From assembly GCF_037042905.1 (NCBI RefSeq), contig NC_087250.1:15688001-15752000 (forward strand): 64,000 nucleotides of DNA, in the 5' to 3' direction. This document shows, piece by piece, positions 11,698-57,645 of the stretch (its first letter is position 1; the number at the start of each line of letters is the position of its first letter). The translations under genes were made by a program, and so were the position numbers. The notes beneath the pieces are model-generated. The model had not been told where the DNA came from and ran no database searches. It was given only the letters and a program-made list of their open reading frames with translations. Origin of the DNA: Lytechinus pictus (Eukaryota).

Positions 11698-12010
11698 CTT
11701 TAAAAAACAATAGATCAATGATTCATTAAAGCAAAGCAGGGCCGGAATTGGAGGAAGCATGCAGGGACCGTTAAAAGACAACAGATCAATGATCCATTAA
11801 AGCAAGACAAGTACTTCACTCCCTTTTCAAAAGCAAGGCCGGGACTCTATTAAAGCAAGGCCTAGGGGAAGCCCACAGTGACTTTTAAAAGACAATAGAT
11901 CGATCATGAATTAAAGCAAGGGAGGGCCAGACTTAAAAGGCAGGGACTCCCTTAATGCAAGGCCTGAAAGGAAACATGCAGGGACATTTAATAAAAGACA
12001 ATAGATCAAT
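11698..12010. repeat. Three degenerate tandem copies of the exon 24 acceptor junction
   Basis: GGAAGCATGCAGGGAC-n-TTAAAA-ACAATAGATCAATG recurs at about 11752, 11868 and 11970. Confidence 0.8.
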
Positions 12011-12328
12011 AATTTGGAGAACATTCCCATTATCTATTCTTGGTCAAAACATACAAAATGTTTGGAGATGAACATAGTCGCGAGGTTCCGTGGCCAAGTG
12101 GTCTAAGGTGCCCAACTACACCATGAAAGACCGGGCTTTGATAACCGGCACGGCCTCTGACTAATGTACATTTATCTACATTGCTCTTTTTATCTTCCAT
12201 CAAATAAATGAAAATCCTTCATGCATTATTGATACCATGTCCACATGTAAAAAAAAAAAAGCAAACATGTCAGTTTAACTGAGTACCGGTTAATCTGACA
12301 AAGAGAACATTCCCATTACCAAACTTAC

Positions 12329-12508
12329 ATTCGCTTGCAGATGAACATAATGAGCACGGGAGGCAGTCAGCATCTGAATACTGGTTAAACTGGCAAGGGG
12401 AACACTCCCATTTGCCAAGGGAACTTGTGAAGCCACTTGGACAGCACTCACATGACGATTGCTTTGGAAGTGGTTGGTACGACCCATCCTCACACGGGAG
12501 ACACTCAT
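12329..12508 (-). CDS. Exon 23: CxxC / ephrin-receptor-like cysteine-rich repeats
   Basis: DECLPCEDGSYQPLPKQSSCECCPSGFTS...CSPC...CLPCSLC; phase 1-1, donor gtaagt. Confidence 0.9.
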
Positions 12509-14768
12509 CTACAAAGTGCATTGAAAACAAATGTAATCGAATTGCTGAGGGGTAATATTCAAAGATAACTAATAAAAATTAATAACTCTTATTTACCCAG
12601 CTGTAAGCTGTTCTTCCAGTGGGCCCTCATTACGAGACAGGCACGTTTGATTTTTTCAGAGTTTTTACTTTCAAACTCGGGATTGAAACATTGAGATGGA
12701 ATCAAATGCACCCGCTTAGTCCTCTCCGCAAACCACAGAATGCCCTCGAGCAATAGGGAGCTCTGATAACCGCAGATAAGCAGTGACTGAATCGCTATAC
12801 TGAAGTCCCCCGACGTGGTGAATGAAAGTCTCCATGCCAAAAATTGTATTAAAAATGTAAATGGTAAAGTTGCCAACGAACATTCATATCCCGAAATAAA
12901 CTTGGAAGCCTGAAAAATGGACCAGAAAAAGTTGGGATATTGAAATGAAATAATGAACAATCTAATGATCGACTCGCATCTCGGGGGATTCGCCGAAAAT
13001 ATATTGTTTACACTGTACGTCGCCCATTACCCGAGCTGGGCTGCGGCTAGAAATTTGACCTCAGGAGCAGATTAATTCTGACTGGCTTGAATTTCTGGAC
13101 ATTTATGATTTATTTTCATGCTATTTTATTCATCTTCATTTTGTCAAAAAGATTTCTTAAATTGATAGTTACCCCAGACATTACTTTGAATGGCTGAAAA
13201 GGACCGAGTAAAAGCCAAGATAATTTATTCAGTCTCCTTTTCTCATGTCTGTACAACAAACGCATATTGACTTATTGGGTTCCGAGTTTCGCCTCAAAAC
13301 TCGGATCTCAATGTTTCACGGAGTTGCATACTTCTATAGGCATCTTTCACTAGTCTAATTCCTAGACCACTGTTACTGCATCGTAAATGTTTGGTTTGAC
13401 TTTATGGTTTTATTTTGACGGATGAAGAGGGAGTTAGGAGAGAGAGAGATAAAAGGTATGTATGTATGTGTGTGTGAGAGAGGGAGAGATAGAGAAAGAT
13501 GGCAAAGAGATTGAGGGAGAGAGCGAGCGAGAGAGATGAACCATTCATGCCTTCAAAATGTGTACAAGACTACCTATCATATTATCTGTGTTGCGCTGAT
13601 GCGGTTTCTGTTCATGGCCTCACGGGCCTATTAACATTGGGAAAGCAAGAGATATTCATTCGAGCCAACCCATTGCTATTTTTTTAATTTTGATATGGCT
13701 GATTGACAAAGTGTATGCATATGATTGTCCATCTAACACTGATTCTATTTTTGGTAAATACTGAACTTGCTTTTCCCAAATTGGGAAGAAATATCACCAA
13801 TTTTGGACTATATTTTGACTGGCGGAAGGATTAGGGCTATTTTGCTGTTTGAGGTGATGAATCTGCTCCCCCCGACGGTGTCTTCAAACACGCCAATTTA
13901 TTTTTAAAATGAGCCTGTCGAGGGACCCTTTTCTGGTCAGATATGGATTGCCAGATATATATCCTATCCACTGGTAGTAAACATTCGACCCCCGAATTTC
14001 ATCCTTATTTTTTATGAATTTTTTAAAGTGCCAATTTAACACACGAGTCTATGGGGAATGAATTAAGCCTGTGAGACCTCATAGGAAGATAAGTGCCCTG
14101 AGGGACTTGTTTATTTTCTTTGATAGGGCTGGAATTCTCCTTTGTTCCCATCTCAATGTTTCAATTTTCAAACGTAAGGATTTCCTCATGCTCCATAAAA
14201 TAATATGTTATTATAACCCTTCTCCATTCTCATCTGTTGAGTGCATGACAAGAAAGCAGAAGGTAAGTCTTTGGTATAACTCAGCCGGGGATCAGACCCA
14301 CGACATCCCGTTCATGAGGTTGGCGCTCTATTACTGAGCCCCCATGTCCAACTGAATATTGAGTTTTTAATTTGCCAGCTTAGGTGCCTTGTCATAAGTT
14401 GGAATCACATTTACATGAAGAATCAATGCGGAATGCAAGAGAGCTTCTATCAATAAATGATCCGACACGTAGTGCCTTTATATCAGAATTCCCGCTAAAA
14501 AAAGATGGCACAGACTTTTGATAAGGTACCTAATGACATGGCAACTTCTCAGCTTTTCAGTGATACCCTACTTCTTACCCGTACACCATTGATGATTCAA
14601 ATAATTGATGTTTAAGACGTTGGGTACGAATTCCACTTTTTCCAAGTATCGGAAGGCCGAGATGAAACTTTCAATGGCAACTTTTTTAGGGGAATGATAT
14701 CTTTGTCAATGGACATGATCAATAGGAATAGACCTTTTGTAAGATATGCTATTATGTGCAATGCTTAA

Positions 14769-15520: not shown

Positions 15521-15940
15521 AGCTTGACCAAGAAGTGCTTTGTATAAAGAGAGGAATCTGTAAATCTTGTCTTCCACAGTGATTTATTCAGTCATGCATG
15601 GTGTGAGTAGTGTAAGGTATCAATGAAAAGATGAGTTATTCCCTCAAATGATGGTATAAATGTACATGTACTGTACTTAAATTGTAGTATTCAATGATTA
15701 TTTCATATTAACCATTAAAATTCAGAATACGAGTACCTTTATTTTGATAAAGCGATTAACAAGCTCACTGAACTATGTCCTCATTGTCTGAGTCAAAGAC
15801 AAGAGCAATACATCAATTTTAGCCTTAAATCAGGTGTTCCCTGAATGGGAAGGAAGTTTCAAAAAAGTTCCACTAAATATATTGTGAATGAAGAATTTAT
15901 ACTTTCACGATAATGAGCAAAATATATTTTGGGGTGCAGT

Positions 15941-16410
15941 ATATTTGGACCCATCGAAGGGGAGAGTTGTTCGAGAGTGACATCATGAAGTAAGCAAGAT
16001 TTGGGTTATATTTGGACCCATTGAAGGGGAGAGTTGTTCAAGAGTGACATCATGAAGTAAGCAAGATTTGGGTTATATTTGGACCCATCGAAGGGGAGAG
16101 TTGTTCAAGAGTGACATCATGAAGTAAGCAAGATTTGGGTTATATTTGGACCCATCAAAGGGGAGAGTTGTTCAAGAGTGACATCATGATGTAAGCAAGT
16201 TTTGGGTTATATTTGGACCCATCGAAGGGGAGGGTTGTTCAAGAGTGACATCATGAAGTAAGCAAGATTTGGGTTATATTTGGACCCATCGAAGGGGAGA
16301 GTTGTTCAAGAGTGACATCATGAAGTAAGCAAGATTTGGGTTATATTTGGACCCATCAAAGGGGAGAGTTGTTCGAGAGTGACATCATGATAAGTAAGCA
16401 AGTTTTGGAT
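15941..16410. repeat. 67-bp minisatellite, 7 copies, abutting the exon 22 donor
   Basis: ATATTTGGACCCATCGAAGGGGAGAGTTGTTCAAGAGTGACATCATGAAGTAAGCAAGATTTGGGTT at 15941, 16008, 16075 and onward. Confidence 0.95.
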
Positions 16411-16416: not shown

Positions 16417-16519
16417 CTTGTCCATATCCTATCGAGTAGAAACCTGGTCTGCACTCTGTCCTTACTCCATCAAAACATGCTGTACCAGCTTCACATTGGA
16501 TGCATTCATCAATACAGAA
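16417..16519 (-). CDS. Exon 22: CxxC / GCC2-GCC3-like cysteine-rich repeat
   Basis: FCIDECIQCEAGTACFDGVRTECRPGFYSIGYGQ; phase 0-1, donor gtgggt. Confidence 0.87.
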
Positions 16520-16639
16520 CTGAAAATGATAATATAATAATTTTGATATAACGGATATTACGATCACTTCTCTATGCTTTGCCACAGAATTGGATGCACT
16601 CACCAATACAGTACTGAAAATCATACTAATAAAAAAAAA

Positions 16640-17985: not shown

Positions 17986-18048
17986 CGTGTCATTGCATAC
18001 TGCGTATGTATATGGTGGACATATATATGCATATCCATCGTGGCAAAT
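17986..18048 (-). CDS. Exon 21: cysteine-rich micro-exon (63 nt)
   Basis: ttccag|ICHDGYAYICPPYTYAVCNDT|gtaaga; phase 0-0. Confidence 0.82.
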
Positions 18049-19025: not shown

Positions 19026-19104
19026 ATCATCATATGCTAAAAGCACACATTTATAATTGGGCTTTACTAATTTTTAGTGTACTCAATGAAATAGGCATAA
19101 TTAA

Positions 19105-20014
19105 AGGGATGCTCCAGGCTGAAGATATTCATATTTCAATTAATGGAGTAAAATTCACAGAGCAAAATGCTGAAAATTTGATCAAAATCAGATAACAAAT
19201 AACAAAGTTATTGAATTAAAAAAATTTCATTATACCAGTGAAACAGTTCTAGACATGTCTTCATGAATATTCATTAGGTGGGGTGATGTCATATCTCTTC
19301 TTGTTCTTTTGTATTTTTATTATATGAAATTGGGTTTATTCAAAAATTTTCTACCAAGAACTATAACAATTTGATTGACAACTGATTAAGTGTATTCGAT
19401 TTAGTGCTGCAACTAAATTTCATCATAATGGAGACACATACACATGCATGAAAAAACGAAACAATTATGATTTCATATAATAACATAAGAAAAAGGAATG
19501 TGGGGGATGTGACATCATCATCATGACGTGCATATAATAAAATATTGCTAAACTTAAAAATTCAATAACTTTGTCATTTGTTACCCGATTTTGATGACAT
19601 TTTCAGCAGTTTGCTATTTATTTGGAAGAGCCGTGGTGTAGTGGTTCTGACTCTCGCCTTGTAAACAGAGGGTCGTGTGTTCGAATCCCACCTAGGTCTA
19701 GCGTCCTTTAGCAAGGCGTTAATCCACACTTTGCCACTCTCGATCCAGGTGCTAAATGGGTACCCGGTAGGATGCGAAAGATATTGCATGTTTGAATTTG
19801 CCAGCGCCATAATGAGGCTGCGATGAATGCAAGGAATGCTCCCCAGGGAGTGGAAATTGTGCACTTTTCATGCAGGATTGAAATGAATCCCATGACCGGG
19901 GTAAATAATATGCTGTAAAGCGCTTTGAGCCATTCTGGGAAAAGCACTATATAAAAATTGGCTATTATTATTATTATTATTTAGATATGAATATTCTCAG
20001 CCTGGAGCATCCCT
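19105..20014. mobile_element. Kolobok-like element (family of 736-1317) with nested SINE
   Basis: TTAA|AGGGATGCTCCAGGCTGA...TCAGCCTGGAGCATCCCT|TTAG. Confidence 0.82.
19623..19980 (+). mobile_element. tRNA-SINE family A nested in the right TIR
   Basis: Head nearly identical to 376-732; (TAT)n tail. Confidence 0.85.
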
Positions 20015-20194: not shown

Positions 20195-20358
20195 ATGTCC
20201 TTCTGGGCAATGGCTGCAGTGCGTTGCGTGTCCATAGGAGTGTTCCACCGGTGAGCGATCGCAATCATCGCGTGGCGGGTCACATCGGCCACACGTTGAA
20301 CGTGATCCGTCACCCGGGCAGTAGTACGTGGTCTCGCATCGCATACAACCAAGCAGAT
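20195..20358 (-). CDS. Exon 20: CxxC cysteine-rich region
   Basis: HLLGCMRCETTYYCPGDG...CGRC...CSHCPEGH; phase 1-0, donor gtgaga. Confidence 0.88.
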
Positions 20359-20760: not shown

Positions 20761-20914
20761 GTTTAAACTTCATGTACGGCCTGCACCCTAGCAGCTCGAA
20801 GCGCAAACCAATACGGCTGTGCCACGATATAGGATAAATCCGCAAATATATGGCGTATACTTCATCAAAGTAGTTTGTCACTGTGCTGGTCTGGTCGTAG
20901 TTTCCAATGAATAC
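20761..20914 (-). CDS. Exon 19: discoidin domain 3, C-part
   Basis: VFIGNYDQTSTVTNYFDEVYAIYLRIYPISWHSRIGLRFELLGC; phase 0-1, donor gtaagt. Confidence 0.92.
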
Positions 20915-21777: not shown

Positions 21778-21971
21778 CCTGGTCTTATTGTTTGCGTCCA
21801 AGATATCCATCCATGAGAATGTATTGTTAGAGACAGCCAATGTGAAGTTTACAACCCATGCCAGTATATCACTGGAACCCTGCGTTTTGATTCCCGCTAA
21901 CACAGTGGTTTCATTCATAGATACTTGCATCCATTCACCCGGACGCGATGGGAAGTTACCTGGCACCCAAC
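21778..21971 (-). CDS. Exon 18: discoidin domain 3, middle
   Basis: GWVPGNFPSRPGEWMQVSMNETTVLAGIKTQGSSDILAWVVNF...; phase 1-0. Confidence 0.9.
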
Positions 21972-22028
21972 CTGTTGACAGAGTTGATTAGATGATGTTT
22001 GAATGTCTGCATGGTGACATAGACAATT

Positions 22029-22847
22029 GAAGAGTTTAGTTGCAAAAGGGGTTACGTCCACTTGGTACCATTCCGAGAAAAACCATGTTTTTTATTCTCA
22101 CTTGTTGCAATATTCTTATGAGAAACTAAATTGTCATACTGTACTACCTTATCATGTAAACATAAAATTGGGTATAAAAGAAATCTACCTGTCTTCAATT
22201 TTTTTCAATATATTTAAAAAAAAATTGTCATTGTGGACCTAACCCCTTTTGCAAGCAAACTGAAATGAATCCAATCTCTTTTGATTAAAAAAGTGATTTT
22301 TCTTTGCCACTTTCATTCATGCTTTCATATGAATTTCAAATTGTCTTTGGTATCATCAGAGTGACTAAAAATTTAGAGGTTTAGAGACAGAAAACAATAA
22401 AATTTATGAAAAATGGACCTAACCCCTTTTGACAAATGAGGTCTTCAGAAGAGTTTGGTTGCAAAAGGGGTTAGGTCCACCCCAAGAAAATCATTTTTTT
22501 CTCTCCCATATTGCAATATTCTTATGTGAAACTGAATTTTCATGATACCCTACCATGAGAACATGAAATTGGGTATAAAAGAAATCTACCTGTCTGCATA
22601 TTTTTTAAGAAATTATTTTCCAAAAAAATTCTGTGTGGACCTAACCCCTTTTGCAACTAAACTGAAATGGACCTAACCCCTTTTTAAAAAAAAGGTGATT
22701 TTTCTTTGCCATTTTAGTTCACTTTTTAATAGGAATTTCAACTTTTCTTTGGTATCATCTTATAGAGCTATTAAAAATCTACACATTGAGACATAAAATC
22801 AAATTTGATGAAAAATGGACCTAACCCCTTTTGCAAGTGAGCTCTTC
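22029..22847. mobile_element. Head-to-tail dimer of an approximately 410-bp TIR element, AATT TSD
   Basis: AATT|GAAGAG..TTGCAAAAGGGGTT...AACCCCTTTTG..CTCTTC|AATT; units 22029-22446 and 22448-22847; empty site visible at 23272-23362. Confidence 0.85.
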
Positions 22848-23366
22848 AATTGTGGAAGAGGTTCATGGTACCCCACATGGAAAGTCCTAGGAAGGACTAA
22901 CAAATGTTGATAGATGTGATCAGATTCAGATATTTTTATTGTCCATTATGCAATCAGGTACAAATGGAAATTCAATTTGTTCACTCAAAATAATTTAGAA
23001 TGTCGTATGATACACACAAAGATTACACGATACATATCATTCTCGTCCAGAAAGCACCCTTTTTCTTTTGTTATTTTAGAAGCTTGCTTTTCAATTTTTA
23101 ACAGTTTATGTGTATCCTCTTTCCTACTTACATATAATTATCCAAACAGTTGAACTAAAGAGAAGTGCACTTTCCACCATTGCCTTATAATAGACCTGCA
23201 GTATCATCTCTTGAACATGAGCGGACCTTTATAGCTTTCAAAGGAAGAACATTCTACTTTGGGCTTTGTAAGTCTGCACGGTGATATAGACAATTGTGGA
23301 AGAGGTTTACGGTACACCACATGGAAAGTCCTAGGAAGGACTACAAAATGTTGACAGATGTGGAAG

Positions 23367-24672: not shown

Positions 24673-24807
24673 CTGAACCAAATAGCCGCGTAGGTAGTCT
24701 ATTGAGTCTTGCGCCGTCCACACTGTGACCTTCCAGGCCATCATCAGAGGCATCGAGATGAAACTCACTGATGAGTCTCGATTCCATTCCAAGAGGAGAT
24801 AGACAAA
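24673..24807 (-). CDS. Exon 17: discoidin domain 3, N-part
   Basis: VCLSPLGMESRLISEFHLDASDDGLEGHSVDGARLNRLPTRLFGS; phase 1-1; exon end could alternatively be 24679. Confidence 0.85.
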
Positions 24808-26052: not shown

Positions 26053-26267
26053 CATATTTGTAGAAGTAATATTTCGGGACAGCCACCCCGATCTCTCCTG
26101 TGTCCACGCCGGTTGTGAGCCGAAGAGGGGTCCGCTCTTCATCAGCGTCAAATACACATGACTCACTCACTATTAGAGTAACGTTTTTTACCATACCTCT
26201 TCGGGGAAAACCGCCATCAACAGCCGCTAGGCGGACAGTCACATTACTCAGTAGCTCATCACGTTGG
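26053..26267 (-). CDS. Exon 16: cadherin-like unit 2, C-part plus linker
   Basis: VQRDELLSNVTVRLAAVDGGFPRRGMVKNVTLIV... (AxDGGxP motif); phase 2-1, donor gtgaga. Confidence 0.88.
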
Positions 26268-28095: not shown

Positions 28096-28259
28096 ACAGA
28101 ATGGGCTACTTCTGAATAATATGATATCATGGCGTTATGTCCTTGATCATTGTCGTAAGCATAAACAGTTTCGATGTATTGTTGGAATACTGGGACTGGA
28201 TAAAAGGTGTGGTTTCCAGGGAACACTGGGCATTGGTCATTAGCATCGTCCACATAAAC
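28096..28259 (-). CDS. Exon 15: cadherin linker and unit 2
   Basis: VYVDDANDQCPVF...TVYAYDNDQGHNAMISY (DxND-xPxF and AxDxDxGxN calcium motifs); phase 0-2, donor gtaagt. Confidence 0.9.
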
Positions 28260-28261
28260 CT

Positions 28262-30335
28262 ACAAAAGGACATGAAAGCATAATAAGTACAATTATATAA
28301 AGCTATTAAACTGGGCAGCGGTCATTATTATCATCCATATAGACTTATGGTAGGACATGAAAATATAATTATTATAAAGTAACTTATTATCTGGGTATTT
28401 GTCATTTTTATCATCCGCATAAACCTATGATAGGGCATGAAAGCATAACAAGTACCATTATAAACTTATTAAATTGGGATTGCTCATTATTATCGCCCAC
28501 ACAGACCTATGATAAGACATGAAAATATAATTATTATAAAGTAACTTATTATCTGGGTATTTGTCATTTTTATCATCCGCATAAACCTATGACAGGGCAT
28601 GAAAGCATAACAAGTACCATTATAAACTTATTAAATTGGGATTGCTCATTATTATCGCCCACACAGACCTATGATAAGACATGAAAATATAATTATTATA
28701 AAGTAACTTATTATCTGGGTATTTGTCATTTTTATCATCCGCATAAACCTATGACAGGGCATGAAAGCATAACAAGTACCATTATAAACTTATTAAATTG
28801 GGATTGCTCATTATTATCGCCCACACAGACCTATGATAAGACATGAAAATATAATTATTATAAAGTAACTTATTATCTGGGTATTTGTCATTTTTATCAT
28901 CCGCATAAACCTATGATAGGGCATGAAAACATAACAAGTACCATTATAAACTTATTAAATTGGGATTGCTCATTATTATCGCCCACACAGACCTATGATA
29001 AGACATGAAAATATAATTATTATAAAGTAACTTATTATCTGGGTATTTGTCATTTTTATCATCCGCATAAACCTATGATAGGGCATGAAAGCATAACAAG
29101 TACCATTATAAACTTATTAAATTGGGATTGCTCATTATTATCGCCCACACAGACCTATGATAAGACATGAAAATATAATTATTATAAAGTAACTTATTAT
29201 CTGGGTATTTGTCATTTTTATCATCCGCATAAACCTATGACAGGGCATGAAAGCATAACAAGTACCATTATAAACTTATTAAATTGGGATTGCTCATTAT
29301 TATCGCCCACACAGACCTATGATAAGACATGAAAATATAATTATTATAAAGTAACTTATTATCTGGGTATTTGTCATTTTTATCATCCGCATAAACCTAT
29401 GATAGGGCATGAAAGCATAACAAGTACCATTATAAACTTATTAAATTGGGATTGCTCATTATTATCGCCCACACAGACCTATGATAAGACATGAAAATAT
29501 AATTATTATAAAGTAACTTATTATCTGGGTATTTGTCATTTTTATCATCCGCATAAACCTATGATAGGGCATGAAAGCATAACAAGTACCATTATAAACT
29601 TATTAAATTGGGATTGCTCATTATTATCGCCCACACAGACCTATGATAAGACATGAAAATATAATTATTATAAAGTAACTTATTATCTGGGTATTTGTCA
29701 TTTTTATCATCCGCATAAACCTATGATAGGGCATGAAAGCATAACAAGTACCATTATAAACTTATTAAATTGGGATTGCTCATTATTATCGCCCACACAG
29801 ACCTATGATAAGACATGAAAATATAATTATTATAAAGTAACTTATTATCTGGGTATTTGTCATTTTTATCATCCGCATAAACCTATGATAGGGCATGAAA
29901 GCATAACAAGTACCATTATAAACTTATTAAATTGGGATTGCTCATTATTATCGCCCACACAGACCTATGATAAGACATGAAAATATAATTATTATAAAGT
30001 AACTTATTATCTGGGTATTTGTCATTTTTATCATCCGCATAAACCTATGATAGGGCATGAAAGCATAATAAGTACCATTATAAACTTATTAAATTGGGAT
30101 TGCTCATTATTATCGCCCACACAGACCTATGATAAGACATGAAAATATAATTATTATAAAGTAACTTATTATCTGGGTATTTGTCATTTTTATCATCCGC
30201 GTAAACCTATGATAGGGCATGAAAGCATAATAAGTACCATTATAAACTTATTAAATTGGGATTGCTCATTATTATCGTCCACATAGACCTACATTTATGA
30301 TAAGACATGAAAGCAAAACATATATCATTATAAAC
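28262..30335. repeat. 162-bp tandem repeat (dimer of about 81-bp subunits), about 12 copies, filling intron 14
   Basis: AACTTATTATCTGGG recurs at 28381, 28543, 28705 and onward; copies nearly identical. Confidence 0.95.
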
Positions 30336-30424
30336 TTGGGGTGTGTTCAATGTCAAGGAGTAGCTAATATCGGTATAATATATATTTTTTAAGCTTTGAA
30401 ATAGACAAATGTACATGTATGTAC

Positions 30425-30582
30425 CTCAATGAATAGGAAGGTTGGATGGTCTCGATCATAAAGTTTGTCAAACCTTAGTTTTACTTGGTAAGCAGGCTTT
30501 TCTTCATGGTCTAAGATAAGATTCGTGATGACTGTAACATTACCTTTCCCATACCATACGGCATTATCGAGGTTCGGGGATT
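30425..30582 (-). CDS. Exon 14: cadherin-like unit 1 (C-terminal half)
   Basis: ...GNVTVITNLILDHEEKPAYQVKLRF...TFLFIE (LDxE motif); phase 1-0. Confidence 0.85.
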
Positions 30583-31176
30583 CTAAAAAGAAACGCAAAG
30601 ATATCATTCAATTAATTCATTTGTATTTGGAAATACCCGCTGAGAATCTTTCTCACTTTCAGTTAAGTTAAATTTAATAAATAAAGGTTAGAAGAGAGGA
30701 TGAAAAAGGATGTTGGTATAAAGGGACCATGCATGTTTTATTGATAAAGTTCTGCTTCTTTTGTGTTCAATGCATATTTTGTTAATGGCAATCCTTACAT
30801 TTGTATTTGATATTTAATCCTTTGTATAAGTTTGAATGGAAATGAAATGACGAATTGAATCAAGGCAACTTCAGTTGTTAAGGGTATGGTTTGAGATTTT
30901 GGGGCAGCACACCCATACCCTTTCTAAATCCACATGCCAGTCTGAAGTGACACGACATCTGCTCCGGTCTCAAATATCAGCGGGCATAGGGTTATAGCAA
31001 TTGTAGTAGAGTTTTTGATTCAGAATAAAAATGTAAAGATAAGGATTACGGTTTATTTAGTTGTGGAGGTTAGGTTTAGGTTTGGCTTAATGTGAAGATT
31101 TTCCATTGGAGCAATCGTTGCCACAGCAAATATCATGGAACCCGCTACACCCCCCTGTTTCCCACCTAAGACTCAC

Positions 31177-37406: not shown

Positions 37407-37442
37407 CTACAAGGTGAGGGGATGATGTCACAGTAGTATTTA

Positions 37443-38357: not shown

Positions 38358-38359
38358 CT

Positions 38360-41300
38360 AAAAGATACGTATCAAAGGCAAATTATAGTGTTATTTCATC
38401 AGAATGTGACACCATTCAGATACAAATGACCCACGATAGAATGAGTGATCTAAAAGGTTTGCATCAATTAAAGGATTATCGTGTTATTTCATCAGAAATT
38501 AGACACAATTCAGATACAAATGACCCAAGATAGAATGAGTGATCTAAAAATTTTGTATTAATTAAAGGACGATTATCTTGTGATTTCATTAGAAATTTGA
38601 CACCATTCAGATATAAATGACCCAAGATAGAATGAGTGATCTAAAAGATTTGTATCAATTAAAGGAAGATCATCTTGTGATTTCATTAGAAATTTGACAC
38701 CATTCAGATATAAATGACCCAAGATAGAATGAGTGATCTAGAAGATATGTATCATTTAAAGGTAGATTATCTTGTGATTTCATCAGAAATTTGACACCAT
38801 TCAGATATAAATGTCCCAAGATAGAATGAGTGATCTAAAACATTTGTATTAATTAAATGCAGATTATCTTGTGATTTCATCAGAAATTCGACACCATTCA
38901 GTTATAAATGAACCAAGGTAGAATGGGTGATCTAAAAGATTTGTATTAATTAAAGGACGATTATCTTGTGATTTCATTAGAAATTTGACACCATTCAGAT
39001 ACAAATGACCCACGATAGAATGAGTGATCTAAAAAATTTGTATTAATTAAAGGACGATTATCTTGTGATTTCATTAGAAATTTGACACCATTCAGATATA
39101 AATGACCCAAGATAGAATGAGTGATCTAAAACATTTGTATCACTTAAAGGTAGATTATCTTATGATTTCATTAGAAATTTGACACCATTCAGATACAAAT
39201 GACCCACGATAGAATGAGTGATCTAAAAAATTTGTATTAATTAAAGGACGATTATCTTGTGATTTCATTAGAAATTTGACACCATTCAGATATAAATGAC
39301 CCAAGATAGAATGAGTGATCTAAAAGATTTGTATCAATTAAAGGAAGATCATTTTGTGATTTCATCAGAAATTTGACACCATTCAGATATAAATGACCCA
39401 CGATAGAATGAGTGATCTAAAAGATTTGTATCAATTAAAGGCAGATTATCTTGTGATTTCATCAAAAATTTGACACCATTCGGATATAAATGACCCAAGA
39501 TAGAATGAGTGATCTAAAAGATTTGTATCAATTAAAGGAAGATTATCTTGTGAGTTCATTAGAAATTTGACACCATTCAGATATAAATGTCCCAATATAG
39601 AATGAGTTATCTAAAAGATTTGTATCAATTAAAGGTAGATTATCTTGTGATTTCATTAGAAATTCGACACCATTCAGTTATAAATGAACCAAGGTAGAAT
39701 GGGTGATCTAAAAGATTTGTATCAATTAAAGGAAGATTATCTTGTGATTTCATTAGAAATTTGACACCATTCGGATATAAATGACCCAAGATAGAATGAG
39801 TGATTTAAAACATTTGTATTAATTAAAGGACGATTATCTTGTGATTTCATTAGAAATTTGACACCATTAAGATACAAATGACCCACGATAGAATGAGTGA
39901 TCTAAAAAATTTGTATTAATTAAAGGACGATTATCTTGTGATTTCATTAGAAATTTGACACCATTCAGATATAAATGACCCAAGATAGAATGAGTGATCT
40001 AAAACATTTGTATCACTTAAAGGTAGATTATCTTGTGATTTCATAAGAAATTTGACACCATTCAGATACAAATGACCCACGATAGAATGAGTGATCTAAA
40101 AAATTTGTATTAATTAAAGGACGATTATCTTGTGATTTCATTAGAAATTTGACACCATTCAGATATAAATGACCCAAGATAGAATGAGTGATCTAAAAGA
40201 TTTGTATCAATTAAAGGCAGATTATCTTGTGATTTCATTAGAAATTTGACACCATTCAAATATAAATGACCCAAGGTAGAATGGGTGATCTAAAATATTT
40301 GTATCAATTAAAGGAAGATTATCTTGTGATTTCATTAGAAATTTGACACCATTCGGATATAAATGACCCAAGATAGAATGAGTGATTTAAAACATTTGTA
40401 TCAATTAAAGGACGATTATCTTGTGATTTCATAAGAAATTTGACACCATTCAAATACAAATGACCCACGATAGAATGAGTGATCTAAGAAATTTGTATTA
40501 ATTAAAGGACGATTATCTTGTGATTTCATTAGAAATTTGACACCATTCAGATATAAATGACCCAAGATAGAATGAGTGATCTAAAAGATTTGTATCAATT
40601 AAAGGAAGATCATTTTGTGATTTCATCAGAAATTTGACACCATTCAGATATAAATGACCCACGATAGAATGAGTGATCTAAAAGATTTGTATCAATTAAA
40701 GGCAGATTATCTTGTGATTTCATTAGAAATTTGACACCATTCAAATATAAATGACCCAAGGTAGAATGAGTGATCTAAAAGATTTGTATCAATTAAAGGA
40801 AGATTATCTTGTGATTTCATTAGAAATTTGACACCATTCGGATATAAATGACCCAAGATAGAATGAGTGATCTAAAACATTTGTATCACTTAAAGGTAGA
40901 TTATCTTGTGATTTCATAAGAAATTTGACACCATTCAGATACAAATGACCCACGATAGAATGAGTGATCTAAAAAATTTGTATTAATTAAAGGACTATTA
41001 TCTTGTGATTTCATTAGAAATTTGACACCATTCAGATATAAATGACCCAAGATAGAATGAGTGATCTAAAAGATTTGTATCAATTAAAGGCAGATTATCT
41101 TGTGATTTCATTAGAAATTTGACACCATTCAAATATAAATGACCCAAGGTAGAATAGGTGATCTAAAATATTTGTATCAATTAAAGGAAGATTATCTTGT
41201 GATTTCATTAGAAATTTGACACCATTCGGATATAAATGACCCAAGATAGAATGAGTGATTTAAAACATTTGTATCAATTAAAGGACGATTATCTTGTGAT

Positions 41301-44210
41301 TTCATAAGAAATTTGACACCATTCAAATACAAATGACCCACGATAGAATGAGTGATCTAAGAAATTTGTATCAATTAAAGGAAGATTATCTTGTGATTTC
41401 ATTAGAAATTTGACACCATTCAGATACAAATGACCCAAGATAGAATGAGTGATCTAAAAGATTTGTATCAATTAAAGGAAGATCATTTTGTGATTTCATC
41501 AGAAATTTGACACCATTCAGATATAAATGACCCACGATAGAATGAGTGATCTAAAAGATTTGTATCAATTAAAGGCAGATTATCTTGTGATTTCATCAAA
41601 AATTTGACACCATTCGGATATAAATGACCCAAGATAGAATGAGTGATCTAAAAGATTTGTATCAATTAAAGGAAGATTATCTTGTGAGTTCATTAGAAAT
41701 TTGACACCATTCAGATATAAATGTCCCAATATAGAATGAGTTATCTAAAAGATTTGTATCAATTAAAGGTAGATTATCTTGTGATTTCATTAGAAATTCG
41801 ACACCATTCAGTTATAAATGAACCAAGGTAGAATGGGTGATCTAAAAGATTTGTATCAATTAAAGGAAGATTATCTTGTGATTTCATTAGAAATTTGACA
41901 CCATTCGGATATAAATGACCCAAGATAGAATGAGTGATTTAAAACATTTGTATTAATTAAAGGACGATTATCTTGTGATTTCATTAGAAATTTGACACCA
42001 TTAAGATACAAATGACCCACGATAGAATGAGTGATCTAAAAAATTTGTATTAATTAAAGGACGATTATCTTGTGATTTCATTAGAAATTTGACACCATTC
42101 AGATATAAATGACCCAAGATAGAATGAGTGATCTAAAACATTTGTATCACTTAAAGGTAGATTATCTTGTGATTTCATAAGAAATTTGACACCATTCAGA
42201 TACAAATGACCCACGATAGAATGAGTGATCTAAAAAATTTGTATTAATTAAAGGACGATTATCTTGTGATTTCATTAGAAATTTGACACCATTCAGATAC
42301 AAATGACCCACGATAGAATGAGTGATCTAAAAAATTTGTATTAATTAAAGGACGATTATCTTGTGATTTCATTAGAAATTTGACACCATTCAGATATAAA
42401 TGACCCAAGATAGAATGAGTGATCTAAAACATTTGTATCACTTAAAGGTAGATTATCTTGTGATTTCATAAGAAATTTGACACCATTCAGATACAAATGA
42501 CCCACGATAGAATGAGTGATCTAAAAAATTTGTATTAATTAAAGGACGATTATCTTGTGATTTCATTAGAAATTTGACACCATTCAGATATAAATGACCC
42601 AAGATAGAATGAGTGATCTAAAAGATTTGTATCAATTAAAGGCAGATTATCTTGTGATTTCATTAGAAATTTGACACCATTCAAATATAAATGACCCAAG
42701 GTAGAATGGGTGATCTAAAATATTTGTATCAATTAAAGGAAGATTATCTTGTGATTTCATTAGAAATTTGACACCATTCGGATATAAATGACCCAAGATA
42801 GAATGAGTGATTTAAAACATTTGTATCAATTAAAGGACGATTATCTTGTGATTTCATAAGAAATTTGACACCATTCAAATACAAATGACCCACGATAGAA
42901 TGAGTGATCTAAGAAATTTGTATTAATTAAAGGACGATTATCTTGTGATTTCATTAGAAATTTGACACCATTCAGATATAAATGACCCAAGATAGAATGA
43001 GTGATCTAAAAGATTTGTATCAATTAAAGGAAGATCATTTTGTGATTTCATCAGAAATTTGACACCATTCAGATATAAATGACCCACGATAGAATGAGTG
43101 ATCTAAAAGATTTGTATCAATTAAAGGCAGATTATCTTGTGATTTCATTAGAAATTTGACACCATTCAAATATAAATGACCCAAGGTAGAATGAGTGATC
43201 TAAAAGATTTGTATCAATTAAAGGAAGATTATCTTGTGATTTCATTAGAAATTTGACACCATTCGGATATAAATGACCCAAGATAGAATGAGTGATCTAA
43301 AACATTTGTATCACTTAAAGGTAGATTATCTTGTGATTTCATAAGAAATTTGACACCATTCAGATACAAATGACCCACGATAGAATGAGTGATCTAAAAA
43401 ATTTGTATTAATTAAAGGACTATTATCTTGTGATTTCATTAGAAATTTGACACCATTCAGATATAAATGACCCAAGATAGAATGAGTGATCTAAAAGATT
43501 TGTATCAATTAAAGGCAGATTATCTTGTGATTTCATTAGAAATTTGACACCATTCAAATATAAATGACCCAAGGTAGAATAGGTGATCTAAAATATTTGT
43601 ATCAATTAAAGGAAGATTATCTTGTGATTTCATTAGAAATTTGACACCATTCGGATATAAATGACCCAAGATAGAATGAGTGATTTAAAACATTTGTATC
43701 AATTAAAGGACGATTATCTTGTGATTTCATTAGAAATTTGACACCATTCAGATACAAATGACCCAAGATAGAATGAGTGATCTAAAAGATTTGTATCAAT
43801 TAAAGGAAGATCATTTTGTGATTTCATCAGAAATTTGACACCATTCAGATATAAATGACCCACGATAGAATGAGTGATCTAAAAGATTTGTATCAATTAA
43901 AGGCAGATTATCTTGTGATTTCATTAGAAATTTGACACCATTCAAATATAAATGACCCAAGGTAGAATGAGTGATCTAAAAGATTTGTATCAATTAAAGG
44001 AAGATTATCTTGTGATTTCATTAGAAATTTGACACCATTCGGATATAAATGACCCAAGATAGAATGAGTAATTTAAAACATTTGTATCAATTAAAGGTAG
44101 ATTATCTTGTGATTTCATTAGAAATTTGACACCATTCAGATATAAATGACCCAAGGTAGAATGAGTGATCTAAAAGATTTGTATTAATTAAAGGCAGATT
44201 ATCGTGTGAT
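38360..44210. repeat. 97-bp satellite, about 60 copies, with higher-order structure
   Basis: CCATTCAG at 38603, 38700, 38797 and onward; rare variants recur at 2134 (22x97) and 2425 (25x97) spacing. Confidence 0.97.
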
Positions 44211-44621
44211 TTGATAAGTAGACAATTCAAGGTTTGAAGTTGGGGGTTCAAGCATGATATGTAACCACTGAGCCATTTCAGTGAAAACTACCAAGCAAAC
44301 CAGGGGGGGGGGGGGGAAATGGTGTAAAAAAAATATGTATCTTGTCTCTTTTTCAACGGTACAAAATTTGGTATGAATAAGTATGATCAAAAGAGATAAA
44401 GAGACTTGCCCGTGAGAGACAGCTCGCTGAGCGATACGCCCAAGAGTTTAGTTAAATATCCAGTTTTCTGAAATAATGAAGTCAGAATATTGGCATAGCG
44501 AAAATATATCGAAGTCTGAAGTCACGCATCATCAAAGTTAAAATGCCTTTAATCACATGATGCTATTTGAACCAATGACTATTCAGGATTTAATCTATGT
44601 AGGATATAAATGCAACTGGCA

Positions 44622-45634
44622 CAGAGATGCCAACTTTTGGAAATCAGAATTAGGGAGGATTTGCAACCGACACCGACACCGAGCGGAGCGCTCGACCCTT
44701 GCGGCCGGGGTCGAGGGCCCGCCTTAGGGCCCTGGAAGCTCTGGGTTTCTAGATGCTCTCTGGTGCAATCTGACCCTTATTTTGGAGCATTTCACATGTT
44801 TTAAAAAAAACATTGTTCCCACTTTTTGGACATAAAAATAAAAATATCAAATATGCATTTTTACATGTAAAAAAAATGAGGGGACAATAGAAGAAAAGTA
44901 CCTGTTCAACTATAATAATGAGGAATTATCCTCTTTATTATTATTAAAGCGCGGGTAACGTCTTCCTCCTCGCTGGTCCCTTGCTTGGTGAAATAAGTCA
45001 ACAGGGTACTAGTGGAGCTCGAAGATCTCGTCTTCGCAATGTCCGTATGCCGTTTGCTCCCTACGTACTTCCGAATATCATCACGACCTCCGTGCTCAAC
45101 TTTAATGTCCACGCTGCAAATTGTGCAAAATGTATGGTAGATTCCTCTTTCCGACTTCCGAATACACGGGTACTGGAGACTGTATTCAGTCTTATACTTC
45201 TGAGACCATTTCTTGGTCTTTTTTTGTTGATTTTCCGCCATTTCGTGTCAATATCAACCCATCAATACGCCGAAATCACACACCGATATTCCATCGCACG
45301 ACTCGACAAATCCAGCGGCCGCGAGCGCACACGCCTCGCAAAGCTAGCCGGGCCTACCGGCCTGGTGCACAGTGGATTCCCGTTGGGCATATCACATGCA
45401 CCAGCTTTTCGCTGCTCCTTATTTGCCTGCCTTTCACACAGAATTTAGTAGCAGCGAAACGTAATGGAGTCACTACATGCTAAAGTCAGCAGACGATACA
45501 TGTACTTCCAATCCAATTTGATCAATGCAAAAAAAATCGTAATTTCGGGAGGATAAGGATGGTAATCGTAAGGGCGGGAGTTGGGATGAATTTTCGGGAG
45601 CCTCCCGATGAAATCGGGAGGGTTGGCATCTCTG
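44622..45634 (-). mobile_element. Internally deleted hAT-like transposon with 6-bp TSD
   Basis: CTGGCA|CAGAGATGCCAAC...GTTGGCATCTCTG|CTGGCA. Confidence 0.88.
44950..45241 (-). pseudogene. Truncated hAT transposase N-terminus (zinc-finger region)
   Basis: MAEN...YPCIRKS...FCTICSVDIKVEHGGRDDIRKYVGSKRH resembles the N-terminal BED/TTF-like finger of hAT transposases; no catalytic domain follows. Confidence 0.75.
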
Positions 45635-45750
45635 CTGGCATATCTCTGACAACTCCCATTATGTGTATTACTATTCCCTCTGAGGGAGGGCGCTGTGAGA
45701 TTACGACGTCACATGCATTAGGTCTATTGTACAATTGAGTGAAGTCTTAC

Positions 45751-45900
45751 CAACACCCCTCATTGGGTACCTGGCCGCTGTACGGAAGTGGTCATGAGGT
45801 TCAAAGGAGGTCCACTTCTGACAGGTGCGGCCTGAGATAGTCTGATTCACAGACCCTCTATAATCAGACATATCGGTAGAGCTATAGCATTCTCTTGAAT
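45751..45900 (-). CDS. Exon 8: kringle 1, N-half
   Basis: DSRECYSSTDMSDYRGSVNQTISGRTCQKWTSFEPHDH...; phase 1-1, donor gtaaga. Confidence 0.92.
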
Positions 45901-50487: not shown

Positions 50488-50722
50488 AAGTTATATAACA
50501 TTTTAAAGCTTAGGATGTGCCCTTTCAAGATCATTGAATATCTCAGAATTCATTTTGGGCGACTTAATGTTGGGTTTTTTTTTTTGGGGGGGGGGCAGTT
50601 CACAAGTTATATAACATTTTAAAGCTTAGGATGTGCCCTTTCAAGATCATTGAATATCTCAGAATTCATTTTGGGCGACTTAATGTTGGGGGGGTTTTTT
50701 TTTGGGGGGGGGGCAGTTCACA
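50488..50722. repeat. About 116-bp tandem duplication next to the exon 7 donor
   Basis: AAGTTATATAACATTTTAAAGC... at 50488 and 50604; copies differ only in homopolymer runs. Confidence 0.9.
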
Positions 50723-50735
50723 AATGCTTTGTTAC

Positions 50736-50904
50736 CTCTTGGAAAGCGCTTCCTTCCCGGTCTGATATCTCGTCCAATCAACTCAAATCTGATCACTGAA
50801 TGACTTTGTAGGGCCATCACGACAATTCTCACATATCGAGTAAGTACCGGTCTGTAGAAATAGTTTGTGACAACTGTATTCTGGTCGAAGTTACCAAGGA
50901 ATTC
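50736..50904 (-). CDS. Exon 7: discoidin domain 2, C-part plus basic linker
   Basis: EFLGNFDQNTVVTNYFYRPVLTRYVRIVVMALQSHSVIRFELIGRDIRPGRKRFPR; phase 0-1; not in ORF track. Confidence 0.88.
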
Positions 50905-51716: not shown

Positions 51717-51851
51717 TATCTGGCGGCGTATGTCAAGAGTATCGTGCCATAGGTATTGGTCAAAACTCCGCAATACTCGGAATCTTGTCACCCATTGTTC
51801 ACGAAACTCAGTCTTGCCTTGCGTCATCAGGCCGATCACCAAGAAGTTTGC
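51717..51851 (-). CDS. Exon 6: discoidin domain 2
   Basis: ANFLVIGLMTQGKTEFREQWVTRFRVLRSFDQYLWHDTLDIRRQI (TQG and WVT motifs); phase 0-0, donor gtaagt. Confidence 0.88.
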
Positions 51852-52674: not shown

Positions 52675-53792
52675 CTACACAGTACATTGTACATACACAC
52701 AGAACATAGTACATTCACACAGAAAACTTTACATACACACAATACACTGTACATACACACAGTACAATTTACATTCACATGGTATATTGTACATACACAC
52801 AGTACACTGATAGTACTGTACATTGTACATACACATTGTACATTATACATAGGCACAGTACATAGTAAATACACACAGTACACTGTACATACACACAGTA
52901 CACTGTACATACACAGTACATTGTACATACTGTACACACTGTACATAGTACAGTGTACATACACTCTGTACATCGTACATACACACTGTACATTGTACAT
53001 ACACAGTACATTGAACATACTGTACACACTGTACATAGTACACACACACCGGACATAGTACATACACACAGTACACTGTACATACACACAGTACACTGTA
53101 CATACACAGTACATTGTACATACTGTACACACTGTACATAGTACAGTGTACATACACTCTGTACACTGTACATACACACAGGAAACTGTACATACACACA
53201 GTACATTGAACATACTGTACACACTGTACATAGTACATACACACCGGACATAGTACATACACACACTACACTGTACATACACACAGTACACTGTACATAC
53301 ACAGTACATTGTACATACTGTACACACTGTACATAGTACAGTGTACATACACTCTGTACATCGTACATACACACTGTACATTGTACATACACACAGTACA
53401 CTGTATATACACAGTACATTGTACATACTGTACACACTGTACATAGTATATACACACTGTACATAGTACATACACACAGTAAACTGTACACACACAGTAC
53501 ATTGTACATATACACACAGTACACTGTACATAATTATACACTGTACATACACAGTACATTGTACATACACAGTACATTGTACATACTTTACACACTGTAC
53601 ATAGTACATACACACAGTACATCGTACATACACACAGTAAACTGTACATACACACACAACACTGTACATACACAGTACATTGTACATACTCTACACACTG
53701 TCCATAGTACATACACACAGTGCATTGTACATAGACACAGTACACTGTACATACACACAGTACATTTTACATACACACTGTACATAGTACAT
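52675..53792. repeat. Complex TGTACA/ACAC low-complexity repeat
   Basis: Reiterated CACTGTACATACACACAGTA; source of the spurious C/V/Y/T ORFs. Confidence 0.95.
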
Positions 53793-53857
53793 AAGTCTTG
53801 CTGAGTTCATCCCGAGTTCAGGTATTAGTACAGATTCACACTATCATAGTGGTCAAT

Positions 53858-55094: not shown

Positions 55095-55162
55095 CTTTAA
55101 GTCTGCTTGTATCCAGGGGTTTTTTCGGTCTCCAGACGCCCATCCTCCGCCATAAGGTGGTC
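55095..55162 (-). CDS. Exon 5: discoidin domain 2
   Basis: GPPYGGGWASGDRKNPWIQADLK; phase 1-0. Confidence 0.85.
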
Positions 55163-55504
55163 CTATATCAATCAAAGTCAGATCAAGGACTTTAAACAGA
55201 CGGAGCAAATACAAATATACAATAATAAACAAAAAACAATTATGTTTGAAAATGAGATTTCACCTAACTTTTTGGAAATGCTGATCACTTGGCAGGCAGT
55301 GCATCCCCCATTGAGATGCGCATAATGCCTGTAAACCTTGAGGATTGTCAACATATATAAGCCAATCACTTGAAAAGAGGACAATCACTGATTAAAACTC
55401 ATTCAAATAATTAATACAGTTATAATGCAGAGAGGTAATCTATGTTCATAATTTTGATAGTGAAGATAGAGATGGTAAGGACTATTTAAATTTAATTATT
55501 TTAA

Positions 55505-55984
55505 AGGGAAACTAAAATTAGCAGAAAAATGCCGGTAATAAAAAAACATTGCCAAAGGCTTGATAGAAATATCAAAGAATTAAAAAGTTATTAGAATTTT
55601 AATTATTTGATTTGTGACGTCATATGCGAGCAGCATTCCTACAAAGCAAATAGTAAAAAATCAATGAAATGTCATTTTCTCAGAAAATTGAAAATGTTTT
55701 TTTAACTGTTCTTTTCATATATCAAAAGACAAATCATTTCACACCCGATCATGAATAGAAAACAAAAATAAGTCATAGGAACCATTAAAAAAAATGAAAT
55801 TCATGCCTTTTACATTACATAACTAATGGGGCAGCAGCTTATTTATGACGTCACAAATCCCAAACTTAAAAATTCTAATAACTTCCTTAATCTCTAATAA
55901 ATTTTCCTCAAACCTTCACGATTATTTTTTCATTTTTTTTCTGCTATTTTTACAACAAACTTTTCTTCGGGGTAAACTCCCCCT
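55505..55984. mobile_element. Kolobok-like MITE
   Basis: TTAA|AGGG...CCCT|TTAA; inverted TTTGTGACGTCATA / TATGACGTCACAAA arms. Confidence 0.7.
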
Positions 55985-57645
55985 TTAAGCAGGGAGTACA
56001 ACTTATGAGTGTGCTAACCAGAATGTCCAGAACTTAAAATTCTAATAACTTTTTTCAATCTTTAACAGATTTTCCTCAAACCTTCACCATTATTTTATTA
56101 TTATTTTTTCTGCTATTTTTACAACAAACTTTTCTTCGGGGGTAAACTTTCCCCCCTAAGCAGGGAGCACAACTTATGAGTGTGCTTACCAGAATGCCAA
56201 GAACTTAATATTCTAATAACTTTTTTCAATCTTTAACAGATTTTCCTCAAACCTTCACCATTATTTTTTCATTATTTTATCTGCTATTTTTACAACAAAC
56301 TTTTCTTCGGGGTAAACTTTCCCCCCTAAGCAGGGAGTACAACTTATGAGTGTGCTAACCAGAATGTCCAGAACTTAAAATTCTAATAACTTTTTTCAAT
56401 CTTTAACAGATTTTCCTCAAACCTTCACCATTATTTTTTCATTATTTTATCTGCTATTTTTACAACAAACTTTTCTTTGGGGTAAACTTTCCCCCCTAAG
56501 CAGGGAGTACAACTTATGAGTGTGCTAACCAGAATGTCCAGAACTTAAAATTTTAATAACTTTTTTCAATCTTTAACAGATTTTCCTCAAACCTTCACCA
56601 TTATTTTTTCATTATTTTATCTGCTATTTTTACAACAAACTTTTCTTTGGGGTAAACTTTTCCCCCTAAGCAGGGAGTACAACTTATGAGTGTGCTAACC
56701 AGAATGTCCAGAACTTAAAATTCTAATAACTTTTTTTCAATCTTTAACAGATTTTCCTCAAACCTTCACCATTATTTTTTCATTATTTTATCTGCTATTT
56801 TTACAACAAACTTTTCTTTGGGGTAAACTTTCCCCCCTAAGCAGGGAGTACAACTTATGAGTGTGCTAACCAGAATGTCCAGAACTTAAAATTCTAATAA
56901 CTTTTTTCAATCTTTAACAGATTTTCCTCAAACCTTCACCATTATTTTTTCATTATTTTTTCTGCTATTTTTACAACAAACTTTTCTTCGGGGGTAAACT
57001 TTCCCCCCTAAGCAGGGAGTACAACTTATGAGTGTGCTTACCAGAATGCCAAGAACTTAATATTCTAATAACTTTTTTCAATCTTTAACAGATTTTCCTC
57101 AAACCTTCACCATTATTTTTTCATTATTTTATCTGCTATTTTTACAACAAACTTTTCTTTGGGGTAAACTTTCCCCCCTAAGCAGGGAGTACAACTTATG
57201 AGTGTGCTAACCAGAATGTCCAGAACTTAAAATTCTAATAACTTTTTTCAATCTTTAACAGATTTTCCTCAAACCTTCACCATTATTTTTTCTGCTATTT
57301 TTACAACAAACTTTTCTTCGGGGGTAAACTTTCCCCCCTAAGCAGGGAGTACAACTTATGAGTGTGCTTACCAGAATGCCAAGAACTTAATATTCTAATA
57401 ACTTTTTTCAATCTTTAACAGATTTTCCTCAAACCTTCACCATTATTTTTTCATTATTTTTTCTGCTATTTTTACAACAAACTTTTCTTCGGGGTAAACT
57501 CCCCCTTTAAGCAGGGAGTACAACTTATGAGTGAGCTTACCAGAATGCCCAGAACTTAAAATTCTAATCAAAAAAAAAATCTTAAGGGTAAACTTCTCCT
57601 TTAAGCAGGGAGTACAACTTATGAGTGAGCTTACCAGGATGTCCG
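55860..57645. repeat. About 170-bp tandem repeat, 10 copies: MITE right arm plus a copy of the exon 4 donor junction
   Basis: CAGGGAG(T/C)ACAACTTATGAG at 55990, 56161, 56331, 56501, 56671, 56842, 57013, 57183, 57343 and 57512, with the original at 57606. Confidence 0.93.

Follow-up and report, generated by a model that had tools for sequence, protein, structure and literature searches.

Seven splice junctions of a single gene region in Lytechinus pictus are copied, one or many times over, into the adjoining introns. The stretch analyzed is a 64,000-nucleotide window (assembly GCF_037042905.1, contig NC_087250.1, positions 15,688,001 to 15,752,000 of the forward strand; positions below count from its first letter), and the host is a minus-strand gene that resembles part of mega-thrombospondin. 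The copies, five of acceptors and two of donors among 58 junctions, are head-to-tail direct repeats with periods of 81/162, 97, 170, ~94 to 110, and ~330 bp. They belong to a known repeat class, the mirage minisatellites, and the window is a real example of that class at unusual density. We consider it probable that these repeats are neutral by-products of local tandem duplication and that their excess at junctions is due mainly to differential persistence. Junction-derived spans make up ~11.9 kb of the 64 kb, which supports an earlier suggestion that such duplication makes introns grow and identifies it as a route of intron growth.

Copies that cross splice junctions were detected using one probe for each of the 58 junctions (40 exon and 40 intron bases), aligned to up to 2 kb of the adjoining intron and evaluated with 200 shuffles. 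At the acceptors of exons 24, 22, 15, and 13 and at the donor of exon 4, such copies scored above all 200 shuffles, and the alignments contained 19, 25, 34, 40, and 10 exon bases, respectively. Further alignment extended the exon content to as many as 44 bases for exon 24 and 75 bases for exon 13. When whole exons were compared with introns, the best of 812 non-adjacent pairs reached a score of 34, which 5 of the 58 adjacent pairs surpassed, one of them the newly found exon 23 event; no score on the opposite strand was higher than 27.5. The exon 4 event was missed by this comparison because only 10 exon bases had been copied; its junction copies are nonetheless 93 to 96% identical to the real donor region. 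No whole-exon unit was found among the copies, the maximum being 75 of the 111 bases of exon 13. Two other matches were taken as chance, namely a borderline 16-base match of the exon 3 acceptor junction (p = 0.01) and a match of exon 2 into CAT-rich DNA with a score of 31.

An annotation made by a model from the letters alone (the sequence-only reading) had listed several of these repeats, and Tandem Repeats Finder (TRF) together with a sensitive self-comparison recovered every one that it named. Its statement that six repeats hold a splice site plus exon sequence is clear for five (10 to 75 exon bases), and the same five junctions passed the proposed alignment of units to junctions by beating all shuffles; the exon 9 case is the weakest, with ~8 exon bases and a 3-base gap. 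What it called arrays is in part something smaller, as the exon 22 feature (16591-16630) is a single extra copy and those at 11698-12010 and 31720-32760 are three to four decayed copies each. Its list also lacked the exon 23 donor copy and a 51-bp array near the exon 2 acceptor, and it described the pattern without naming the published class to which it belongs. The seven junction copies are as follows.

55863-57646, minus strand: mirage at the exon 4 donor, with a 170-bp unit present in 10 extra copies
38350-44218, minus strand: exon 9 acceptor array, 97-bp unit repeated ~60 times
31213-32757, minus strand: exon 13 acceptor mirage, three decayed copies at 31877-31966, 32216-32280, and 32533-32650
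28226-30337, minus strand: mirage at the exon 15 acceptor, with an ~81-bp monomer (34 exon bases and the acceptor) present in 25 copies
16495-16635, minus strand: exon 22 acceptor copy, one extra copy at 16589-16635
12017-12418, minus strand: exon 23 donor mirage, newly found here
11653-12014, minus strand: exon 24 acceptor mirage, three copies with 32 to 40 exon bases and one exon-only fragment

Three of these events are large arrays. At exon 15, the monomers are arranged as a 162-bp A-B dimer, in which A units are 99% and B units 100% identical among themselves, A and B are 74% identical to each other, and both are 72 to 83% identical to the real junction. Since each type is homogeneous, yet the two differ from one another and from the junction to this extent, the exon 15 array is, to all appearance, an old seed that was amplified recently. 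The first and last units are 75 to 87% identical to the interior, where identity within a type is 99 to 100%. The acceptor AG is kept in 24 of the 25 copies, and the sole loss is in the copy nearest the real site (28311-28377). At exon 24, too, the nearest copy is without its AG, but AG or GT is kept in the nearest copies at exons 4, 9, 13, and 22.

The exon 9 unit comprises the last ~90 intron bases including the AG and the ~8 gapped exon bases, which fall to 0 under stricter penalties; the AG is kept in that context in 51 of ~60 units. Across the 41 units of regular length, identity is 93.5% in the interior, 89.2% for the first unit, and 86.6% for the real end. At exon 9, the real acceptor has the form of a tandem AG-NAG (38355-38359); three of these bases are missing from the array units, so that the decoys look like a site displaced by one codon. 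In the exon 4 unit, ~10 bases from the exon's end are combined with the donor, ~35 bases of intron, and the end of a neighboring inverted-repeat element; this composition suggests that the duplication came after insertion of the element. The donor GT is kept in 10 of 10 copies, and in four of them every position between −3 and +6 agrees with the real donor. Elements of ~550 bp with inverted ends recur in the window (55444-55990, near 735-1320, and 19100-19630) and look by eye like miniature inverted-repeat transposable elements. Higher-order periods were observed at exon 4 (341 and 852) and at exon 9 (2,425 bp), and together with the divergent boundary units these suggest unequal exchange as the amplifier.

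The other four events are decayed, with one to four copies each that are 79 to 93% identical to the real junction. The exon 13 copies carry the acceptor and 42 to 75 bases of an EGF exon at a spacing of ~330 bp, with 79 to 82% identity and the AG kept in two of three. The single exon 22 copy lies 94 bases upstream and has 25 exon bases, 87% identity, and its AG. At exon 23, bases 12366-12418 recur at 12269-12321, directly behind the donor, with a score of 46.5, above all 2,000 shuffles (p = 0.0005), and at 12017-12076 there is another copy, decayed, that crosses the donor (p = 0.001). The exon 24 copies are 81 to 93% identical to the junction; none of the three has its AG in register, one having an AG one base off. 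The 631-bp intron between exons 23 and 24 is thereby largely made of copies of its own two ends. Over all old dispersed acceptor copies, the AG is in register in three of seven.

Mirages were described as minisatellites at Adh3, the globins BflGb6 and BflGb9, troponin C, and PGBD5 of amphioxus (PMC3087553, PMC3902484); they are reported to leave the mRNA undisturbed, and their mechanism was stated to be unclear (PMC3087553). Five of the seven defining features were found here: local head-to-tail repetition, units that span an exon-intron boundary, occurrence at either boundary, partial retention of AG or GT, and homogenization of the interior. As in amphioxus, tandem boundary copies lie in the intron at either exon end, many but not all units keep AG or GT, the units measure tens to ~170 bp, and, as at BflGb6 (PMC3087553), interior units are homogenized and boundary units are not. 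The gene studied here differs in belonging to another phylum, in holding seven such events in one gene region, in its higher-order periods, and in array size, with up to 60 units and 5.9 kb compared with 2 to 7 units at the amphioxus globin and PGBD5 genes. Silent splicing and haplotype length variation have been demonstrated for amphioxus, whereas the arrays reported here are known from sequence alone. No report of echinoderm mirages and no genome-wide test of junction enrichment was found in a literature search that left most subscription papers out of reach.

Donor-spanning variable-number tandem repeats (VNTRs) are also known in human genes, namely F7 intron 7 (37 bp), IFI6/6-16, CBS intron 13, LMNB2, and PDGF intron 4, and the excerpted source reports several functional donors in F7, of which only the most upstream is used (PMC1557585). 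The F7 repeat is like the exon 4 array in that its first unit extends over the boundary of exon and intron, with the donor recurring in the intron. The human cases, as described there, comprise one array per gene and donors only, while five of the seven events here are at acceptors; at 6-16 and CBS, splicing does use the nearest pseudo-sites, and a degree of leak may occur here as well. Likeness to the Rogers model and to the internal tandem repeats at exon-intron boundaries of human paralogues, in the part of PMC2812944 drawn upon, lies in local tandem duplication involving splice signals. In contrast to intron gain under that model, the copies here derive from existing junctions and lie in introns already present; there is no sign of a new intron or exon, and the arrays sit in introns of an intact 29-exon model.

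To judge whether clustering at junctions exceeds chance, we took 16 local direct duplications from a blind self-comparison (E < 0.001, offset of at most 1.5 kb) plus the exon 23 event, 17 events in all. Excluded were microsatellites, low-complexity pairs (including the CAT run at 62305-62747), the TRF doublets at 24299 and 46063, a weak pair of repeat-element ends at 18962/19914 (E = 0.002), and self-matches weaker than E = 0.001. Under the null, each event was collapsed to one seed and placed at random, exon-internal and whole-exon placements being disallowed. The statistics cover one 64-kb window, picked because it looked striking. Junctions were spanned by 7 of the 17 events versus 1.95 expected (P = 0.0015), which bears out, within the window, the non-random placement put forward by the sequence-only reading. 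Events that span a junction or end within 20 bases of one numbered 10 of 17 versus 2.5 expected (P = 2.6 × 10−5), and the remaining 7 lie more than 20 bases from any junction. With the exon 23 event dropped, 6 of 16 are spanning (P = 0.006; P = 0.028 when exon 9 is classed as non-spanning). All five arrays with at least 90% internal identity, a subset chosen post hoc, either lie across a junction or end no more than 12 bases from it (P = 5.5 × 10−5). Among the 10 non-spanning events, 3 end 8 to 15 bases from a junction versus 0.37 expected (P = 0.005). These three adjoin a junction without copying it, and the first two are the arrays that had been claimed, correctly, to end at donors.

15940-16408, unstranded: 67-bp unit in 7 copies, an array ending 8 bases from the exon 22 donor, unit without exon sequence
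50488-50723, unstranded: 116-bp unit in 2 copies, a duplication that stops 12 bases from the exon 7 donor and holds no exon sequence
60678-61970, unstranded: 51-bp unit in 22 copies, an array that begins 15 bases from the exon 2 acceptor and is free of exon sequence

These P values depend on how much intron was available at seeding, and this assumption matters since repeats are sparse near junctions: of the intron outside the arrays, at least 21% is occupied by repeats that also occur at other places in the window, whereas their share is 3% of intron within 50 bp of junctions, 15 to 31% at 51 to 800 bp, and 12% beyond. Most mid-intron bins of 30130-38480 are high-copy in contigs of a related organism, for which two raw RNA runs and two DNA contig sets were used (85% likeness, ~5 to 8% different in exon-covering pieces). 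With half of the intron available, P becomes 0.055 for spanning events, 0.006 for those near or spanning a junction, 0.0013 for the five homogeneous arrays, and 0.035 for the three that stop short; with 35% available, the first three values are 0.21, 0.057, and 0.006; and with 25%, P is 0.53 for spanning events and 0.023 for the five arrays. Thus, the junction excess in the window is significant but model-dependent. Chance combined with ascertainment, whereby tandem duplication is frequent genome-wide and the window was chosen as one in which several events hit junctions, would agree with the vanishing of the spanning excess at 35% of intron or less and with the seven events distant from any junction. 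We regard it as an unlikely account in view of the P values under the plain null and of the near-junction statistic, which holds at half the intron.

The sequence-only reading had offered two causes for the pattern. One was a survival filter in which only duplications leaving one intact exon persist; because the null already excludes whole-exon and exon-internal duplications, and the filter only removes events, it is not the source of the excess, although it does explain the absence of whole-exon units and the terminal position of the working copy. The other, a duplication bias at junctions, was not established, given the spanning values at half and at 35% of the intron. Its most explicit form would be as follows: in a highly polymorphic genome an exon is an island of allelic similarity within divergent introns, and repair between alleles that pairs at the exon but slips out of register at its edge would generate tandem duplications, later subject to unequal exchange, with the splice site copied incidentally. 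The 10 of 17 events at or near junctions are in its favor at both the full and the half intron, and the anchoring of all five homogeneous arrays and the three arrays stopping 8 to 15 bases short fit it better than they fit persistence. Weighing on the other side are the single window selected as striking, the dependence of the statistic on the intron counted as available, breakpoints of spanning units that lie 8 to 90 bases inside exons and not at the edge, and breakpoint microhomologies of just ~2 to 4 bases by eye. A literature search found no paper proposing allelic repair that slips at exon edges, and the idea is our own inference. We rank persistence first as the leading explanation of the junction excess and a bias of formation or expansion second, as a possible but distinctly less likely one.

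Under the preferred reading, in which junction duplications persist, the following course may be envisaged. A segment of 80 to 330 bp over one junction would be duplicated head-to-tail, probably by slippage or by out-of-register break repair; the product is what the window displays. With only part of the exon copied, the copy at one end would stay continuous with the remainder of the exon and with its other splice site, and the extras would come to lie in the intron, as the observed geometry has it. Exon definition is the basis for expecting use of the terminal copy at acceptors. The spliceosome would keep to that copy, and rare use of a decoy would result in a premature stop at small cost, as the F7 and amphioxus cases suggest by analogy. 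Some seeds would then be amplified and homogenized by unequal exchange into kilobase arrays and others would decay, in keeping with the pattern of large and decayed events. Finally, exon-side DNA may have shelter against deletions and transposon insertions, and the partner anchored in the exon may change slowly, so that junction duplications would last and stay recognizable longer than mid-intron ones. The low repeat cover (3%) within 50 bp of junctions supports such shelter, and a true bias of formation or expansion at exon edges may contribute.

Several observations weigh against this course. The five most homogeneous arrays all touch a junction, which is still unlikely with a quarter of the intron available (P = 0.023), and persistence fits recently homogenized arrays less well than old decayed copies. 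Three arrays adjoin a junction without copying it. Silent splicing is carried over from other species by analogy. Lastly, the AG is in register in only three of seven old acceptor copies, a possible sign of selection against decoys (P ~0.13 by hand, with 70% retention expected).

The imbalance of five acceptors to two donors among spanning events is not significant (P = 0.45). Together with the anchoring to splice junctions, it is what would speak for an origin coupled to splicing or templated by RNA, in which transcription or splicing intermediates break the DNA or template the copies. We hold such an origin to be quite improbable, as all units are collinear with the genome, in direct orientation, and free of exon-exon junctions, and the exon 4 unit includes the end of the neighboring repeat element, which fits a DNA-level event.

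Decoy splice sites, the creation of which the sequence-only reading had anticipated, are present at the level of sequence. With a matrix built from this gene, the exon 15 decoys score 7.9 to 10.1, compared with 9.4 for the real site when it is left out. Premature stops were predicted from 12 of 12 decoys tested, comprising eight acceptors (exons 9, 13, 15, and 24), the exon 22 acceptor, and three exon 4 donors. Mismatches in the exon-derived parts are spread evenly over the codon positions (19/130, 20/130, and 24/128, or 15%, 15%, and 19%), which indicates copies without coding constraint in neutral decay. None of these copies amounts to an entire exon with its two splice sites and its frame conserved; they hold at most the 75 of 111 bases of exon 13, would give premature stops, and have no third-position bias. 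That the decoys or alternative exons are functional and under selection, tuning expression through nonsense-mediated decay or providing alternative starts of EGF exons, is the least probable of the explanations considered: many decoys do score like real sites, as at exon 15, and four at exon 4 are identical to the real donor, but the even spread of mismatches, the stops from all decoys tested, and the loss of AG in four of seven old copies are against it, and amphioxus mirages and F7 pseudo-sites are normally silent in the parts of those reports relied on here.

RNA from the related organism gave a depth of ~0 to 2 in exon bins free of dispersed repeats, too low to judge decoy use; its joint table was dominated by dispersed repeats, and no exon joints were among the 15 listed of 1,275 joint rows. 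Among sequencing runs matched to 30130-38480, none of RNA was listed, and the best contained 12% of the sampled words. Word depth in the relative was 16 to 44 in the two bins holding one 162-bp or 97-bp unit versus 39 to 61 in exon bins, a hint that these amplified units may be absent from the relative; the measure is not copy number and was not relied on.

At ~one junction in eight, the density of mirages makes their origin a countable question, one of biased formation, biased persistence, or chance. The arrays further offer natural tests of how a splice site is chosen, as many as 24 strong acceptors preceding the real one, and may mislead gene prediction and read mapping. We tentatively raise the idea that, in marine animals of high polymorphism, exon edges are mutational hot spots at which tandem duplications arise, through allelic repair anchored on the exon that slips at its edge. 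If so, mirages would be the visible product of a genome-wide process touching ~one junction in eight (7 of 58 here), which would account for almost a fifth of the DNA in this gene region and keep creating near-perfect decoys; the origin of the amphioxus mirages would be explained, and the same excess would be predicted at conserved non-coding elements.

Tandem repeats occur away from junctions as well. Arrays at 52676-53793 (20-bp unit), 36395-36646 (141-bp), and 63054-63381 (66-bp) lie 824, 398, and 171 bases, respectively, from the nearest junction, showing that mid-intron arrays occur too. The intron between exons 1 and 2 (60663-62777) is nearly all CAT-rich, with the 51-bp array followed by a run of ~147 CAT copies that stops ~30 bases from the exon 1 donor. 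An older duplication (21998-22029 plus 22847-22918 versus 23265-23362) appears to have been split by an 820-bp insertion, itself a doublet of 402 to 419 bp; this duplication, at 21998-23362, ends 26 bases from the exon 18 acceptor and stops short of it.

The host gene has 29 coding exons on the minus strand of the window, placed by coordinate and all bounded by GT-AG; they agree with the exon numbering used in the sequence-only reading. The coding total of 4,467 bases, in a single frame of 1,488 codons with no stop, is 7.0% of the window, close to the ~7 percent estimated earlier, and GC content per kb ranges from 29 to 46%. The exons are as follows.

62778-62882, minus strand: coding exon 1
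60472-60662, minus strand: coding exon 2
59647-59797, minus strand: coding exon 3
57635-57772, minus strand: coding exon 4
55095-55162, minus strand: coding exon 5
51717-51851, minus strand: coding exon 6
50736-50904, minus strand: coding exon 7
45751-45900, minus strand: coding exon 8
38223-38357, minus strand: coding exon 9
37125-37406, minus strand: coding exon 10
35730-35996, minus strand: coding exon 11
33617-33754, minus strand: coding exon 12
31177-31287, minus strand: coding exon 13 (EGF)
30425-30582, minus strand: coding exon 14
28096-28259, minus strand: coding exon 15
26053-26267, minus strand: coding exon 16
24673-24807, minus strand: coding exon 17, donor uncertain by 6 bases
21778-21971, minus strand: coding exon 18
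20761-20914, minus strand: coding exon 19
20195-20358, minus strand: coding exon 20
17986-18048, minus strand: coding exon 21
16417-16519, minus strand: coding exon 22
12329-12508, minus strand: coding exon 23
11564-11697, minus strand: coding exon 24
10620-10760, minus strand: coding exon 25
7423-7497, minus strand: coding exon 26
5938-6096, minus strand: coding exon 27
3530-3757, minus strand: coding exon 28
1346-1505, minus strand: coding exon 29

This 29-exon portion (1346-62882) is like part of a mega-thrombospondin, both ends of the gene lying beyond the window. Pfam matches were obtained for 10 of 12 exons scanned (F5/8-C or discoidin, kringle, EGF, ephrin-receptor-like, and TSP_3), with EGF in exons 13 and 24 and TSP_3 in exons 28 and 29, that is, EGF repeats followed by thrombospondin type 3 repeats. 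Exons 14 to 16 hold a stretch that is putatively cadherin-like, judged by a motif; exons 15 and 16, scanned singly against Pfam, gave no match. Three kringle-type domains (exons 8-9, 10, and 11; 35730-45900), two of them confirmed by Pfam, lie between the discoidin and cadherin-like parts. Mega-thrombospondin, formerly named TSP-DD, is bilaterian and, in the sections of PMC6526912 drawn upon, shares with the host gene discoidin, the ephrin-receptor-like cysteine-rich domain, EGF, and type 3 repeats, and perhaps the cadherin-like part. The kringles set the host gene apart, as the word "kringle" occurs 0 times in the accessible text of that paper, and the leucine-rich repeat and C-terminal lectin regions of mega-thrombospondin fall outside the window.

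A frameshift suspected at first in exon 14 was ruled out, since the exon as placed (30425-30582) is open. In the reads and contigs of the relative, all five differences listed in exon 14 fall at the third codon position, and the three listed in exons 12 and 13 fall at positions 1, 3, and 1. At exon 17 the donor is weak and could be either of two GT sites, both in frame and 6 bases apart (24673-24679).

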